Of a stretch of 57,648 nt of DNA, positions 6,592-57,648 are shown piece after piece. The DNA lies in the NCBI GenBank assembly GCA_964456685.1, contig CAYWCK010000001.1, forward strand, positions 1 through 57,648, given 5' to 3'. The stretch's first letter is position 1. Every line of letters begins with the position of its first letter. The position numbers and the translations under genes were made by a program. The stretch comes from an uncultured Bifidobacteriaceae bacterium. Lineage in GTDB: Bacteria; Verrucomicrobiota; Verrucomicrobiia; Limisphaerales; JADLHS01. Under the pieces are notes generated by a model, which saw only the letters and a program-made list of their open reading frames with translations, had not been told where the DNA came from and searched no databases.

Positions 6592-9500
6592 TGAATGACC
6601 TTGAGGCGGTAAAAGCGCTGACCGTTTGGCGGCGCGCCGCCCGTCTGGGTGTAATCATCCACGAAAGTCTCCGATGACGGTGTGCCGTATGGAGCCGGAT
6701 CCATTTCCACATTCAACGGACGGACGACATCGATGAAGTTTCCATCCACGCCCCCACCGCCGTTCCCATTCGCGTACTGCACGCGATAACGCGTGCCGCC
6801 CACGGTTGGCCAGACCAGGGTCACATGGCCATTGGCTGCGCGCGTGGCGCTGCCGATTTGCAGCACCGAAGCGGCATTGGTCGGATTCGTGTTGGCGTAG
6901 TACTCCTGCAGGTTCGTCTCGCCGTCGCCATCGTCATCGGCACCCGGATTGGAAATCCCGAACATCGCCTCCCAACCATCCGGCAGACCGCTGGCGTTGG
7001 CGTCCGGCGGGGCGACGATGTTGAAATTCATCGTGGCGATCGAACTTCCGGCGGTGCCGTCGTGGGCGCTGAAGGTGAAACGATCTGAGCCGCGATAACC
7101 CCGCACCGGGATGTAAGTGTAAGCGCCACCGACGGGAGTGAAGGGCTTGAGCACGCCGTGCGTGGGCAGGGTGTTCGTCTGGAAGGTGAGCGTGTCGCCG
7201 TTCGGATCCACCGCCACGAGATTTAGGTTCGTCGGCGCATCGCCGTAAATGGTGATGAGCGCGTTGGCCACCGTCGGCGCCGTGTTGGGTGCGGTGGTGA
7301 ATCGCCATGCCGGGCTGGTGGTCGAGTTGCCGACTTCGTCATTGACGACCACATACCATTCATAGGCGGTGTTCGACTGGCGGCTTGGCCAGGGCAGGCT
7401 GGCAAGGTTGCCGGAGGGAACATTCGAAATCGTGCCAATCAGTGCATACGGTCCGCCGTTCGAACCCACGGGATGCGACATGTCGTAATCAAACCAGAAG
7501 TCACTGATTGGTCCCGTGGCATAGGTCTTGAAGTACGGCGAGTAGGTGGTGAGCACCACCTGATTCAAGCTGGGTGAGAAATCAATGATCCGCATGAAGC
7601 CGCTGCCACCGTTGGTCCAGCCCTGGTAATCCGAAACGAACGTGCGGACAGTGTTGCCTTGATAGGTGTCCGCACGCCACCCCTCACCCGTGACGTGGCC
7701 GGCCAACATCATGAAAACGTTCTTGTTCGTCTTGACGGCGTTGTAAATGGCGGTGCCTTGCGCGCTGAAACTGACCGGGATGGACGTGTTGCCGAAATTG
7801 TGGGTGACGATGATCGCGCGCCGATTCTGGTTCGTGCGCAACACGTCGTTGGCCCAATTCAACCATTGCGGATTCAACGTGTTGTCGAATTGCAGATAAA
7901 CCACAACGAAGTCCATGCCCCCGGCACTGAAGAAATCGAAATGGTTGTTGTTGTTTGTTCCCCAGTGGCCGGCGTAATACGGCTTGCCGGTGAAGTGGGG
8001 CACGCCGAAATACTCGTTGTAAAAAAGCGTCGTACCGGTGGAATCCCCAATTGGTTCCTCGTCATGATTGCCCACCGCCACGCCGTAGGGAATGCCGCCC
8101 GGCAACAAGGTGCGCCCGGAATCTTCCAGGCGATAAATGGCATTCGTCCCGTTGCGCCATTCCGTCCGGTTGTCGGCGCCGCTCTTAATGTCGCCATTCT
8201 GACTGAAATCGCCCAGATGCGCCACGTAGGCAATGTTGCGCGACACACGGTTGGTGATGATCCACTCGGCCTGCGCGATAAACATCTCCTTCGTTCCGCC
8301 GTTCAGTTCGCCGGTGTAGAACTGCGTGTCCGGCAGCGCGACGATTGAAAAGTCCACCGCCGGATTCACCTGGGCCACGCGACCGTAATAACTCACGGTG
8401 AGATTGCCGGGGGCGGCGTTGGAAACATTGACCTGCAGGTTGGGCGAATTGGGCTGGCCGACGGCATTGTGCAACGGCGCGACGACCGCCGCCGTGGCTG
8501 CCGCAGGAATGAACACAAACGAAGCCACTGGTTCGCCGCCGCCGCCGGGTGTCTGCAATCCAGGTGAGCTGGCCGGTAAATCACGGGATTGAATGATCCA
8601 GCCGTCGCCGTCCGGCTGATAACTGACGATGTTGTCCTGATTCTGACTGAGCCCGCCTTCCGCCGAAATGATGAGCACGCCGCCATCGGGTGAATGCCCC
8701 GGAATGGTCAAGCGCCAAGTGCCCGTGGCGGTGTTCGTCACGGTGTATGCCGGAGTGGCGCCGCTATAAATCAGGCGCGTTCCGTCACCGCGGAAACGGC
8801 CGGAAATGACGGTCGTGTTGGTCTTTGGGATGTACACGAACGCCACCGGGTCCTGTTCATACGAGCCGGCATCCGTGCCGTTGTCTTTCACATAAACCGT
8901 CCAAGTGCCGTTGTTGCTGTTGACTTGGGAGAGGGCGTAGTTGTCTTCATTCTTCCCGTGCGTCACCAGCAATACGCCGTCGGTGCGCGCGTCCACACCA
9001 AAGCTCGTGAGATTGACGATGTTCGTGCCGCCGCCAACGTTGACGTAATGCGTGCCGAGCACGAGACCGGGCGAGCCGGTGAAGAGGTCGTTCGGCCCAC
9101 CGTTAGTGGCGCCCGAGTTCCGCGCAAAACCGGCGAGCCAGTTGGAGTACGAGAAAAAGGCAGCGGCGATGTTGATGTTGAATTCGTCACCGGTCGGCGC
9201 TTGAAAGACGGGGATGTAAAATGCGCCGGCGCTCCCGCCGGACCGGCTGTAATCGATTGCCGTGGTGCAATAATTTACGCCGGGATAGGTGGCTTCGCCG
9301 TTGTCCCGGCCATTCTGCGCCACGCAGGTCATGACCACCCCATTGTCCACATCGTCGCTGAAGCCGATACCGATCTGGAGATTGAAATCGCCGCGGTTGG
9401 AATCCTCGCGGATGGTCAGGTCCCCGACGGTGAGTGTGGCGGTGACGGTGACGGAATCCACCGTATTGCTGATGTCATGTTGAACGACATTGATCAGCGC

Positions 9501-13940: not shown

Positions 13941-14765
13941 TCAGTACGGCCCGGTCGGTCCAAGATAATTAGAATCGCCGCCGATGTTCCAGACGCGGAG
14001 AAAGTTCTTCTTTGTGACCCACTCAGCATGACCGTCCAAGAACGCGAACACTTGGCCTTCGGCTCCGTGATTGTCCATCTTATCGGGCCAATTGTTATAG
14101 TCTCCGGCACCGGCGTCATCGTCACCATCGGTAATCATGAAGGCTTCGGAAGGGCTGACTCTGCGCCCGATTCCGCCCGGAACGTAATTCTGGAGCACAA
14201 AGCTCGACAACCGGCGTTCGCTCTTCTTGCCAGGAACAGTCGTGCTGGTGCCCCAGACACCGAAGCATTCATAGCTATGGCCGTTGGAATCAATCGCCCG
14301 TCCGTTGTTCGCCAAGTCCGCAATGACGACCTTGCTGTTCCAGCCGGCGGCAGCGATGGTAACCGTGTTGGTGCGGATTTTGTTGCGAGTGCCGGGGCAG
14401 ATAAAAGCCCCCGTGCCAGGAACATAAGTTGGGTTCAGCCAGCTCAAATCATCATCGGAGCCGCTGCGAGTACCACCGGAAGGGATGTTTGGAATCTCAC
14501 CAGGAACCCAAGTATCACCACAAAAGTCACCATTGCTATCATCGGCGTACATCATGGAGCCGAGACCCAATTGCTTTAGATTGTTCAGGCAGCTGGTTTG
14601 GATGGCTTTCCTCTTGGCGCGAGTCAGGGCCGGCAAAAGCATGGCGGCCAGAATTGCAATGATGGCAATAACGACCAGCAATTCGATCAAGGTAAAGCCG
14701 GTCCGGCCGGCGCGACGCGCATTTCCCCCGCACGTCGAGGACTTCAGATGGTGTTTCATTTTCAA
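13941..14765 (-). CDS. Prepilin-type N-terminal cleavage/methylation domain protein with a DUF1559-like 'H-X9-DG' C-terminus (pseudopilin-like)
   Basis: The N-terminus [27 protein letters not shown] is a canonical type IV pilin/T2SS pseudopilin leader plus hydrophobic helix. The C-terminus carries FLDGHAEWV. It is the first gene of the long minus-strand gene string. Confidence 0.8.
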
Positions 14766-54212: not shown

Positions 54213-54713
54213 TTATTGCGCGCTTTCCTGTGCGACGATGCGCACGCTTTCCACGTTCATGCGCTTCACCGGGCGGTCGCCGGGCTGGGTTTGCGTGGTG
54301 GCAATTTTTTCCAGCACCTCGTCGCCTTTGATGAGCTTCCCGAACGCCGTGTATTGCCGGTCGAGAAACCGCGGATCGCCGTGGCAGATGAAGAACTGCG
54401 AGCCCGCGGAATCGGGATTATTCGAGCGCGCCATTGAAAGCACGCCACGCACGTGGGCCTTGTCATTGAACTCAGCCTTGATCGTGTGGCCGGGGCCACC
54501 CGTGCCCCAGCTTCCCTTCTTCGCCTCGTCCTTGGTCAACGGGTCGCCGCCTTGAATCATGAAGCCCTTGATGACGCGGTGAAAACACGTGCCGTCATAA
54601 AAGCCTTGCTTCGCGAGTTTCGTGAAATTGGCTACGTGACCGGGCGCAACTTCGGGCCAGAATTCGAGGACCATTTCCCCTTCCGACGTCTTGATAATGG
54701 CAACTTCGCTCAT
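54213..54713 (-). CDS. ppiB: Cyclophilin-type peptidyl-prolyl cis-trans isomerase (cytoplasmic)
   Basis: FHRVIKGFMIQGGDP and MARSNNPDSAGSQFFI are canonical cyclophilin motifs. There is no signal peptide. Confidence 0.9.
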   Translation of the reverse strand: MSEVAIIKTSEGEMVLEFWPEVAPGHVANFTKLAKQGFYDGTCFHRVIKGFMIQGGDPLTKDEAKKGSWGTGGPGHTIKAEFNDKAHVRGVLSMARSNNPDSAGSQFFICHGDPRFLDRQYTAFGKLIKGDEVLEKIATTQTQPGDRPVKRMNVESVRIVAQESAQ

Positions 54714-54731
54714 GGTATGCAGGTTTGAGGG

Positions 54732-55346
54732 TTACTTGACTGAGTCCGCCGGTACAATCTTGATGCTTTCCACGTTCATGCGCTTGACCGGGCGGTTCGG
54801 CCCTTCCGTGGGCGTGGTCGCAATCTTGTCCAACACGTCTTCGCCTTTGATTAATTTACCGAACGCGGTGTACTGCCGGTCGAGATGGGGCGCTTCCGCG
54901 TGGCAGATGAAGAACTGTGAGCCCGCGGAGTTGGGATCCGCCGAGCGGGCCGCCGAAAGCACGCCCCGCACATGATGACGATCATTAAACTCCGCTTTCA
55001 ACTTCTCCTTGGGCCCGCCCGTGCCCCAAGAGCCTTTCATCTTCTCATCCTTCGTGAGGGGATCACCACCCTGGATCATGAACCCGGCGATCACCCGATG
55101 GAAGCAGGTGCCGTCATAAAATCCCTCTTTCGCGAGTTTCTTGAAATTGGCTACGTGATTCGGCGCCACTTCCGGCCAGAACTCCAGCACCATCGTGCCT
55201 TCTGAAGTCTTGATGACTGCGACCTCTTTGACCTCCGCTTTGGCAGGTTCTTCCTTCTTGGTCGCGTCCTTCTTTGGTTCCTCGGCACGGACGAGCGCCG
55301 CACCGCACAAAAGCGCCAGCATGCTGGCGAAAAGCATCTTTTTCAT
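54732..55346 (-). CDS. ppiA: Cyclophilin-type peptidyl-prolyl cis-trans isomerase (secreted/periplasmic)
   Basis: The preferred start is Met14 (ATG at 55346), giving MKKMLFASMLALLCGAALVRA followed by a Lys/Glu-rich linker. Then come FHRVIAGFMIQGGDP and AARSADPNSAGSQFFI. Confidence 0.85.
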   Translation of the reverse strand: MKKMLFASMLALLCGAALVRAEEPKKDATKKEEPAKAEVKEVAVIKTSEGTMVLEFWPEVAPNHVANFKKLAKEGFYDGTCFHRVIAGFMIQGGDPLTKDEKMKGSWGTGGPKEKLKAEFNDRHHVRGVLSAARSADPNSAGSQFFICHAEAPHLDRQYTAFGKLIKGEDVLDKIATTPTEGPNRPVKRMNVESIKIVPADSVK

Positions 55347-55469
55347 AGGGGGCGGGAGTCTTCCATGAACCACCGCGGAAGTCACGCGCGGAATTTACCG
55401 CAACCAGCTCGAACCGTGGCCACGGTCAAGTAAGCGCAAAGCAATCCCAGCCACCGCTACGGTCCGGCT

Positions 55470-55613
55470 TTAGGCGGCGATGCTTTTGAGAATCCAGTCG
55501 TAACCTTTGGCCTCGAGTTCGAGCGCCAGGTCTTTGCCGCCCGTCTTAACGATACGGCCATCTACCAGGACGTGGACGAAGTCAGGGACAATGAAGTTCA
55601 GCAACCGTTGGTA
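55470..55613 (-). pseudogene. Detached copy of the last 47 codons plus stop of sufC
   Basis: 138 of 144 nt are identical to 56458-56601. It encodes the identical peptide [47 protein letters not shown]. Upstream of 55613 the similarity to sufC ends abruptly. The 100-aa track ORF 55470..55772 is this fragment plus unrelated read-through. Confidence 0.85.
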
Positions 55614-55680
55614 AACCGACCCCGACCTAAAGCTTGAACAGCCGCTTTGATTTGGTAGAAAGCCTTGGGCAAAGTAATAT

Positions 55681-56451
55681 ATGATACCAAGGCGTGATCT
55701 GTTGCTCGCACTGGCGTTGGCATTAATAACCGGCACTGTCTCCATTGCACGCGCGGATTTTGATGCAGTCATACCGGCCTTTTATTCAGATGGTCTCGGA
55801 TACGGTCATTGGTCTGTTTACAACAGCTTTACGGTCCATACAAATCTTCGAGTCACCAGTGTCGAGTATTTCAATACTGTGGAGAGTAATGCAGTCATCA
55901 GGTTTTGGGCTGGGACCAACGTCCCGCTCGCTTCGTATGTGTTCCCGACCATTACCAATGGTCCTTTCGGGCCGGAAATGATCCGCAGCAATGCCGCGCT
56001 AACTTTGTTGGCCGGGCGACGTTATTCCATTTCACTCCAAAGTGGAGCGCCGGCAGGCGGGTGGGTTCAATTCGGGTATTACATGAATGCCGCCGTGACC
56101 AATTTTAAGTTAGGCCCATATCTAAGCGATCCCGTGGCGTCCACGCTTTCAACGCGTACGGGGCTGTGGCAAGCCGGGAGCAATTATTTTTTTGAAGGCG
56201 CGAACTTTCGCTATCAGCTTCAAAGCGACCCGATCTCCCAACCACGGTTGACTGTCAAGCGGAGCAATTACAACACCGTTGTCCTTTCGTGGCCGCTTCA
56301 GCCAACAGTTTTTATGCTGCAGGAAAGTGTTGACCTACCGGGTAATAACTGGACTTACACAACAAACGAAGTTGACTCCCTCAGTGGTTCCAACCGAGTG
56401 GTCATTTCGACATCGGCAAGCAATCGATTTTACCGCCTGTTCCTCCCTTAA
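55681..56451 (+). CDS. Secreted protein of unknown function with a C-terminal 'FYRL' domain (cargo of the sufC-flanked insertion)
   Basis: The signal peptide is [27 protein letters not shown] is lower than in the flanks. The last ~70 aa ([20 protein letters not shown]...NRFYRLFLP) resemble the C-termini of the large proteins at 6.6-21 kb. Confidence 0.6.
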
Positions 56452-56457
56452 GAATCG

Positions 56458-56601
56458 TCAGGCTGCGATGCTTTTGAGAATCCAGTCGTAACCTTTGGCC
56501 TCGAGTTCGAGCGCCAGATCTTTGCCGCCCGTCTTCACGATGCGGCCATCCACCAGGACGTGGACGAAGTCAGGGACAATGAAGTTCAGCAACCGTTGGT
56601 A
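56458..56601 (-). repeat. Direct-repeat partner of 55470-55613 (the 3' end of the intact sufC)
   Basis: See the pseudogene entry. There are six mismatches, and every one is silent (five third-position changes plus TGA/TAA). Confidence 0.85.
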
Positions 56602-57236: not shown

Positions 57237-57648
57237 TCATCCAACGCTTCCTTCCAAACTTACTCCGAGCAGCTTTTGCGCTTCCACCGCAAATTCCATC
57301 GGCAGCTCCTTGAACACTTCCTTGCAGAAGCCGTTCACGATCATGTTCACGGCGTCCTGCGTTGCGATCCCCCGGGCGTTGCAGTAAAAAATTTGGTCCT
57401 CGCCGATCTTCGAGGTGCTCGCCTCGTGTTCAACCGATGACGACGTGTTTTTCACTTCGATGTATGGAAACGTATGTGCGCCACACTTCGCGCCGATCAA
57501 CATCGAGTCGCATTGTGAAAAGTTGCGCGAGTTCGCCGCGCTCTTACGAATTTCCACCAACCCGCGATAGCTGTTTTGCCCACGTCCCGCTGAGATGCCC
57601 TTCGACACGATCGTGCTGCTCGTGTTCTTGCCGATGTGGATCATCTTC
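57237..57648 (-). CDS. sufB: Fe-S cluster assembly scaffold SufB. This is the C-terminal part; the gene runs off the right edge.
   Basis: ...[28 protein letters not shown]...[20 protein letters not shown]...[16 protein letters not shown]...[18 protein letters not shown] is collinear with the E. coli SufB C-terminus. Confidence 0.9.

Follow-up and report, generated by a model that had tools for sequence, protein, structure and literature searches.

A detached sufC gene end beside a small cassette in a verrucomicrobial genome: a probable scar of additive, homology-guided recombination

The DNA considered here (the window) is a contig of 57,648 nucleotides, contig C1 of the verrucomicrobial genome G000, which is a 5.8-Mb metagenome bin of 780 contigs. 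Close to one end of the window lies sufC, whose product is the Fe-S cluster assembly ATPase, and the last part of this gene is present twice: once in its proper place and once as a detached fragment, with a small insert bearing a single gene between the two. The features of the locus are as follows.

54732..55385, minus strand: gene for a secreted cyclophilin-type peptidyl-prolyl isomerase (PPIase; PF00160), which would directly follow sufC at an empty site
55386..55469: spacer between the stop codon of the fragment and the next gene, aligned and found to have no similarity to the insert side
55470..55613, minus strand: detached sufC' fragment, consisting of codons 209-255 plus TAA and lacking the first 208 codons, defined by the repeat alignment
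55614..56457: the insert, or cassette, of 844 bp, a compositional outlier with a single copy in the genome
55681..56451, plus strand: cargo gene, an open reading frame (ORF) with a signal peptide, encoding a secreted protein of 256 aa and the sole gene of the insert
56458..56601, minus strand: attached arm, the last 47 codons of sufC plus TGA, continuous with the sufC body in L015, L016 and L028-L037
56458..57225, minus strand: intact sufC, 255 aa (TIGR01978, PF00005)
57237 to beyond 57648, minus strand: sufB (SUFBD_core match), directly upstream of sufC

The identity of SufC rests on a score of 359 bits against TIGR01978, an equivalog model with a curated cut-off of 212.8. The fragment at 55470-55613 repeats 56458-56601 at an offset of 988, and 138 of the 144 bases are identical. 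The six differences (GTA/GTG, CGT/CGC, GTT/GTG, GAC/GAT, GCC/GCA and TAA/TGA) are five synonymous changes at third codon positions and a swap of stop codons, and the same peptide, YQRLL...KSIAA*, is read from both copies. The repeat is bounded by the stop codon at one end and by the Tyr codon of HYQRLL at the other, and similarity halts exactly there. The fragment aligns solely to the C-terminal part of SufC models (positions 202-243 of 243 in TIGR01978 and 187-245 of 248 in NF007134), and the sufC end has only these two copies across the 5.8-Mb genome. The spacer at 55386-55469 is presumably the original sequence downstream of sufC. The insert has a GC content of 50.6%, against 59.8 +/- 2.8% for the genome, which places it in the lowest 0.4% of 844-bp windows. 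Its cargo gene is convergent with sufC, 6 nt separating the two stop codons. A Pfam scan of the insert found no recombinase or transposase domain, and a repeat scan found no terminal or other relevant inverted repeats. A preliminary description of this DNA, made from the letters alone, had reported the 144-bp repeat with its wholly silent differences, a GC-poor segment of about 840 bp with one secreted-protein gene, and no visible integrase, transposase or inverted repeats; alignment and the two scans bear out each of these points.

The arrangement is not an accident of the bin. About 11 studies spanning 2015-2025 contribute more than 20 runs, from activated sludge or wastewater, in which most words of the region are present, and a 911-nt Logan contig (55584-56494), found in 4 runs from 4 studies, crosses both insert junctions with zero differences. 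Four assemblies (L028, L029, L031 and L032; three MEGAHIT k141 and one JGI) each span sufB, sufC, the insert and the fragment with 99.5-100% identity, and the longest of them, L028, runs on through both PPIase genes present here. Other contigs phase each haplotype to its own flank: L015, like L016, joins the insert to the full copy and the remaining sufC, and L020 runs from the left flank through the fragment into the insert, as L028 also does. Depth in X1 is 25 over the left flank, 27.8 over the insert and 28.5 over the right flank. An assembly artefact, in which two strain variants of the sufC end were stitched together, might be suspected in a metagenome bin of 780 contigs, given that the exact shared blocks of 50-53 nt collapse in k=31 graphs and that one Logan contig, L017, has the fragment haplotype beside the insert on the sufC side. 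However, the junction of sufC interior with insert (55613|55614) occurs in Logan contigs of 4 runs from 4 studies, and this, together with the four whole-structure assemblies, the phased L020 and L015 and the even depth, refutes an artefact for practical purposes. The duplication is real, because junction-spanning contigs come from independent runs and the whole structure from four independent assemblies, and it is fixed in every sampled population. Exact look-ups of the cargo and of SufC returned the occupied form only, with no contig in which sufC is directly followed by the PPIase flank, and all assemblies that extend beyond the insert have the occupied form. Joints in repeat register, the sign of an empty site, were sought at sufC and at two of the loci described below (the MqnC-like gene and uvrB), and none was found; one joint in X7, which has a side of 24 nt and skips 976 nt, does not fit the repeat register and was disregarded.

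The sufC locus does not stand alone. The preliminary description had proposed that the genome be searched for other genes with detached ends, and comparison of the genome with itself yielded six further loci of the same architecture: in each, a conserved gene is intact and a small insert parts it from a truncated copy of its end. The arms are the terminal 94-430 bp of the gene, with 86-96% identity; similarity halts at a start or stop codon, and both 3' and 5' ends are used. The six loci, with their synonymous and non-synonymous differences, are listed here.

C58:17106-18072 (L022:2107-3073): uvrB, first 41 codons; 5 synonymous, 0 non-synonymous; a 721-bp ParD-ParE cassette
C73:8865-12425 (L021): radical-SAM MqnC/CofH-type gene, last 90 codons; 21 synonymous, 2 non-synonymous; a 719-aa BspA-type leucine-rich repeat (LRR) exoprotein
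C117:6926-12900 (L023): ThiF-rhodanese gene 3' end, three copies in a row; 12 synonymous, 4 non-synonymous; two cassettes
C212:2159-4019 (L024): class I fumarase alpha; 12 synonymous, 5 non-synonymous; a ParE toxin and an 86-aa partner gene with no family match
C132:494-900: solute symporter 3' end; 11 synonymous, 2 non-synonymous; a 103-nt palindromic insert resembling repetitive extragenic palindromic (REP) elements, with stop codons TAA/TGA
C302:5023-6318: candidate locus; 5 synonymous, 1 non-synonymous; from an automated screen and a weaker candidate

At uvrB the stub lies upstream of the cassette and has its own GTG start and upstream region. Compared with other populations, this locus has 11 single-nucleotide polymorphisms (SNPs), all of them between the first base of the cassette and the seventh base of the stub (P 5e-5); the flanks are identical between populations, and at least three haplotypes exist. 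The stub of the MqnC-like gene is split by a 280-bp insertion, with a REP-like element of 81 nt at its inner boundary. The two C117 cassettes carry a secreted ankyrin-repeat protein and an IrrE-HTH, DUF4411 and PIN set, the latter looking by its domains like a toxin-antitoxin or defence module, and the locus as a whole looks like successive insertions at one gene end. The cargoes are small accessory modules of unrelated kinds (ParDE, ParE, IrrE/DUF4411/PIN, ankyrin and LRR proteins, a REP-like element). The loci on C73, C58 and C212 are seen in independent data, that on C212 in both JGI and ENA assemblies; a look-up of C117 in independent assemblies returned nothing.

The same screen gave further, weaker candidates for gene-end duplicates on C455, C532 and C749. 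Other near-repeats were set aside: those on C11, C26, C62, C78, C167, C182 and C269 are paralogues or internal protein repeats, and those on C396, C31 and C505 are out of frame. On C18 the near-repeats are clusters of a 118-bp REP-like palindrome (9383-9500 and 14551-14668, of the GTAGGACAGGC...GCCTGTCCTAC type), which flank the gene of a 1656-aa exoprotein. The near-repeat on C5 (19468-20487) is a REP-flanked ORF of 182 aa with the look, by sequence, of a transposase of the IS200/REP-associated tyrosine transposase (RAYT) type (Y1); its inverted REP-like ends recur on many contigs, and it may belong to a REP/RAYT system.

With seven loci in hand, the silent bias of the differences can be weighed formally. 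The null hypothesis is duplication in situ, with neutral decay of the stub thereafter and only silent changes accepted in the working copy. For sufC alone (dS, divergence per synonymous site, 0.17; dN, per non-synonymous site, 0), the chance that all six differences are silent is P 0.003-0.01 if mutation is modelled as uniform or with kappa, and 0.02-0.07 if the spectrum is extreme, restricted to transitions or to GC-to-AT changes. The silent-only pattern of sufC by itself is therefore suggestive rather than decisive. When the seven loci are pooled, there are 72 silent and 14 non-silent differences, with a P value of 5e-6 for the spectrum least favourable to the result and of about 1e-9 to 1e-16 for the rest. 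Across the loci dS runs from 0.17 to 0.49, and dN/dS climbs from 0 to 0.19 as dS rises. This trend, together with the one split fragment, is as expected if the stubs diverged in working genes and decayed only after their displacement. The formal test that had been advised for the 144-bp pair is thus of moderate weight for sufC alone and strong for the pooled loci.

Duplication of the gene end in situ, followed by neutral drift or gene conversion, would make the silent-only pattern a matter of chance. Two observations could be read in its favour: the P of up to 0.07 for sufC alone under the GC-to-AT transition-only model, and the outcome of polarising by outgroup majority, which puts four of the six changes on the fragment, all four of them GC-to-AT. 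(Polarising by family outgroups was rejected as evidence: synonymous sites are saturated, and the result shows no more than codon preference.) But such duplication does not account for the pooled silent excess (P <=5e-6) or for the MqnC-like locus, which alone has 21 synonymous and 2 non-synonymous differences. In addition, similarity stops at start or stop codons even though the coding parts are 86-96% identical, which means that the flanks are not homologous; the composition of the insert is foreign; and there is neither a transposase nor a terminal inverted repeat, while no known transposition mechanism gives target duplications of 94-430 bp. Duplication in situ is consequently very improbable. 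A transposon or insertion sequence (IS) with target duplication was likewise rejected. The hallmarks of such elements are a target duplication of 2-14 bp that is initially identical, terminal inverted repeats, and a transposase (or the form of a miniature inverted-repeat transposable element, MITE); at sufC the repeat is 144 bp long with six silent differences, terminal inverted repeats and a transposase are lacking, and the genome holds no other copy.

Taken together, these comparisons argue that the copies of each gene end had separate histories, in different lineages and under purifying selection, before they came to lie next to each other. That they diverged in working genes follows from the silent bias of the differences pooled over seven loci (72 against 14, P <=5e-6); the preliminary description had proposed as much for sufC, and the pooled data uphold it. 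The time since displacement can be bounded from the stub, which has 0 non-synonymous changes in 107 sites; neutral change since then is at most 0.028 substitutions per site (95% bound). Displacement is thus young relative to the arm dS of 0.17, yet it is older than the spread of the sampled, nearly clonal population, and the insertion is all but identical in sequence across the populations sampled in 2015-2025. The event had earlier been called recent; this holds on the scale of neutral decay but not on the scale of the sampled populations, in every one of which the insertion is fixed.

The geometry of the locus, with direct repeats of a gene end around an insert, an intact target and mostly silent differences, is also that of site-specific elements such as those of e14/phage 21 at icd and of the ICESt family at fda. 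The insert might therefore be a remnant or non-autonomous element, like a cis-mobilizable element (CIME), at the sufC 3' end, with the repeats as attL and attR and the integrase lost or acting in trans. The compact cassette with its sharp boundaries would suit such an element, and a relative of another genus, G043, also has a detached sufC 3' fragment, so that the sufC end could be a preferred site. The other loci tell against it. The targets are different genes, used at their 5' as well as their 3' ends, and the arms have no common core, for which many different lost integrases would be needed. In particular, no word of 11 nt or more, on either strand, is common to the arms of the seven loci, and no common sequence was found among the inserts. 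Scans of the sufC insert and of eight ORFs belonging to four of the six sister loci gave no recombinase, and of the nine matches to the tyrosine recombinase family PF00589 in the genome, none is on the contigs of the seven loci. The element would also be only 844 bp long, and a circular or attP form has not been seen. A dedicated site-specific recombinase is unlikely because the targets are unrelated, both ends are used, the arms share no such word, the inserts share no sequence and no recombinase is present; as a reading of the sufC locus, the integrase element is quite improbable. The two routes that the preliminary description had left open are in this way separated, with homology-facilitated import favoured and an element of the integrase type disfavoured by targets, ends, motif and recombinase evidence.

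The sufC structure is probably the scar of additive, homology-guided recombination with DNA of a diverged relative, without a dedicated recombinase. In such an event the incoming DNA would be the relative's own sufC end, no fewer than its last 47 codons, with the small foreign cassette attached to it directly. It would pair with the resident sufC through the homology arm, and DNA would be added, not swapped. The outcome would be a working sufC that ends in the imported arm, followed by the cassette and then by the resident end, left as a dead stub of 144 bp beside the PPIase gene. Only insertions that rebuild a complete gene would survive selection, and this would be why the arm reaches exactly to the gene terminus. 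The cassette is taken as the foreign part because the GC content of the insert is an outlier at the 0.4 percentile.

Two forms of the incoming DNA can be envisaged. The likeliest intermediate, though its chance falls short of even, is a circular or recircularised molecule of arm plus cassette, which a single crossover of the RecA type would insert by a Campbell-type insertion-duplication. Alternatively, a linear fragment would be anchored by homology in sufC and have its far end joined illegitimately inside the resident gene end, that is, by homology-facilitated illegitimate recombination (HFIR); this too is a substantial possibility, well below an even chance. The pathway of recombination and the route by which DNA enters are inferred.

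Exchange with a diverged lineage can be read in the same operon. The strain contig L032 matches the window exactly along about 2.15 kb, the exception being 11 differences within 142 nt of sufB (57450-57591), all of them spaced by multiples of three bases, which fits third codon positions. This is a patch of homologous recombination from a lineage about 8% diverged, and it shows the population exchanging DNA with a diverged lineage at this operon. Together with the 96% identity of the arm, it is the basis for supposing that the incoming DNA paired by homology with the resident gene. Homologues of comEC, dprA and mutS are present in the genome, as in most bacteria; they fit DNA uptake and do not discriminate between the explanations.

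Several points weigh against additive homology-guided recombination. Arms of 94-430 bp with 86-96% identity are poor substrates for RecA. The cassettes are tightly bounded, with the 6 nt between the stop codons of sufC and the cargo gene and with 12 and 3 nt around the ankyrin gene on C117. The attached arm is probably the imported copy and the fragment the displaced resident end, but this direction is deduced, not demonstrated. The upper P value of 0.07 for sufC alone belongs here as well. A degenerate 48-nt pattern covering both haplotypes, applied to JGI/ENA metagenome contigs in search of the empty site, as had been advised, met the occupied form only. There is no other SufC of at least 90% identity in a collection of 15 billion proteins, the 90% cluster having a single member, and neither a donor lineage nor a free circle was found. 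Finally, in Logan contigs, built with k=31, the shared blocks of 50-53 nt collapse and haplotypes are unphased, so that a minority empty-site or circular form could escape notice.

The tight boundaries raise the question of whether the cassettes are mobile units in their own right, with a short copy of a conserved host-gene end as their sole 'att site', which would repeatedly excise as circles, the arm recombining with the displaced stub, and re-insert by host recombination into any relative possessing the gene. The partner gene of the C212 toxin-antitoxin pair begins right at the stub boundary; boundaries of this kind are not predicted by random fragment ends, and together with the stacking on C117 they give a slight lean to a defined, recyclable unit. 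The occurrence of seven loci in one genome, the stacking of two cassettes at a gene whose end is present three times, boundaries too tight for a promoter, and the restriction of SNP diversity at uvrB to the cassette and the first bases of the stub would all be in keeping with such mobility. But no cassette has been found as a circle, in a second genomic context or with an empty site, the sufC cassette occurs once in the genome and always at the same place in metagenomes, and the data also fit a set of rare one-off accidents kept by drift or by toxin-antitoxin addiction. Repeated cycling of this kind is unlikely, though less so than an integrase element.

The cargo of the sufC cassette is a protein with no Pfam or NCBIfam match. 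Its AlphaFold2 model (predicted local distance difference test score, pLDDT, 82) is all-beta, with two beta-sandwich domains; matches in the PDB are weak, pairing the N-terminal domain with PHR/CBM/lectin-like folds and the C-terminal domain with Fn3/Ig-like ones. HMMER homologues are full-length secreted proteins of about 250 aa with 31-39% identity, and the single relative in a named genome, a Verrucomicrobiota metagenome-assembled genome, has its locus at a contig end, where it is uninformative on context. A look for the cargo in other contexts had been advised; a word-based search gave none, exact look-ups in metagenomes always found the same 844-bp insert at the same place, and beyond it there is only the family at 31-39% identity. 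The N-terminal domain has no second copy in the genome. The C-terminus, which ends RFYRLFLP, is of a wider kind: a profile of the last 70 residues detects 36 ORFs genome-wide, nearly all at the extreme C-terminus (for example C143:3068-5740, C7:27906-31400 and C109:4479-8723). This FYRL-ending domain (...SWP...GF.LQ...NW....N.FYRL), for which there is no Pfam model, forms the end of at least 33 secreted proteins, with triple tandem copies in one of them, and at about 70 aa it looks like a candidate sorting or anchoring tag typical of the lineage. The exoproteins encoded at 6.6-21 kb of the window, which had been thought to bear the same domain, are not detected by the profile; the best E value there is 2.6, over the last 10 residues only, and that claim is not sustained.

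Around the locus, the suf order is a Fur-family regulator (seen in L029-L031), sufB and sufC, with no sufD, sufS or sufE after. The last 55 nt of the window (57594-57648) are the same as the end of another contig (C155:10967-11021); this is a k=55 assembly-graph overlap and places the rest of sufB on C155. On the other side, a cytoplasmic PPIase paralogue lies at 54213-54713; the tandem PPIase genes (54213-55385) have a DNA identity of about 75% in a register of 519 nt, and the downstream one is without the signal-peptide extension of the upstream one. All family relatives inspected have a suf order lacking sufD, sufS and sufE after sufC, and the next gene varies (LptF/G-like permease, prepilin-type proteins, others). 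Synteny downstream of sufC is not conserved in the family; the PPIase gene is far from sufC in relatives, and no sufD adjoins sufBC.

In G043 the detached sufC 3' fragment is on C592:524-677 (L026) and the sufC gene itself on C660 (L027:2428-2581). The fragment and the end of that gene are 84% identical, differing by 9 synonymous and 6 non-synonymous changes, and the fragment is thus more decayed than the stub in the window; similarity reaches 34 nt past the stop codon. The fragment sits 18 nt after a gene for a secreted protein that ends FYRSRPQ. Stubs of this kind get called as spurious small genes, and the sufC stub is a 91-aa ORF in public assemblies. A functional role for the ORF of 91-100 aa over the stub was considered and is unlikely, the sister stubs being in decay (the 280-bp split; dN/dS up to 0.19).

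About half of bacterial gene-gain hotspots have no recognisable mobility gene, and the entry of DNA there is usually assumed and not shown. This genome gives a readable footprint of one entry route, in which DNA of a diverged relative is added, not swapped, and an essential gene is rebuilt in the process.

The nearest counterparts with a recombinase are e14/phage 21 in icd of E. coli, where the icdC pseudogene remains, and the ICESt family and its CIMEs at fda. In these systems the element brings a replacement 3' end and the native end stays as a stub; as at sufC, the copies differ mostly at silent sites and the target is functional. They differ in having their own tyrosine integrase, a defined core and a size of kilobases to tens of kilobases, whereas the insert here is 844 bp, with no integrase on the contig and no common core among the loci. 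The cassettes resemble those of integrons in being compact, often promoterless and bounded by an ORF, in being added serially at a fixed place, and in carrying accessory payloads that include toxin-antitoxin genes. Integrons need IntI, attI and attC hairpins, while the site here is a copy of a host-gene end; general Pfam, tyrosine-recombinase and repeat scans, none of them a search aimed at attC or IntI, found no recombinase on the contig and no hairpin-like site. The idea that the cassettes of this verrucomicrobial lineage are an integrase-free counterpart of integron cassettes, guided by homology arms, is doubtful. Were it true that they cycle through circles, this would be a general, recombinase-free means of transfer for toxin-antitoxin and surface-protein genes.

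Campbell-type insertion-duplication is a laboratory tool in transformable bacteria, for which a non-replicating circle with a cloned chromosomal fragment is used. It gives the same product geometry, with direct repeats around the insert and a gene that stays intact if the cloned segment includes its end. The arms are identical in the laboratory; in the natural event envisaged here they are 4-14% diverged.

Displacement of Rhs tips (Jackson et al. 2009, PMC2935791), which ranks with T6SS displacement and insertion-duplication among the closest precedents, offers a natural parallel; in the model published for it, a circle of a core fragment plus a new tip is inserted by one homologous crossover, and excision occurs between the repeats. 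There, too, the intact gene has one or more detached fragments behind it, each keeping a piece of the conserved body as a direct repeat, no integrase takes part, and stacking occurs as at the ThiF-rhodanese locus. A new Rhs tip, however, alters the protein, bringing a new toxin and an immunity gene, whereas the peptide at the end of SufC is unchanged and the payload is an unrelated neighbour gene; the targets in this genome are, moreover, ordinary single-copy genes, their 5' ends included. Effector-immunity displacement in the type VI secretion system (T6SS) has been attributed to HFIR (Kirchberger et al. 2017, PMC5361080; HFIR of de Vries & Wackernagel 2002 and Prudhomme et al. 2002, as cited there). 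The likeness is that a conserved stretch anchors the incoming DNA, the non-homologous rest is added, the old material is moved downstream and not deleted, and the alleles come from other strains, not from local duplication. The T6SS loci are polymorphic effector loci, and a silent-only duplicate of a housekeeping-gene end is not part of that description. Set beside these systems, the sufC locus taken singly is a typical example of a familiar type of scar, the displaced gene end. What is new is that the scar recurs, with no integrase, at seven housekeeping-gene termini in a single verrucomicrobial genome, where the payloads are toxin-antitoxin, exoprotein and REP-like; this points to a route by which small gene cassettes are added without a recombinase.

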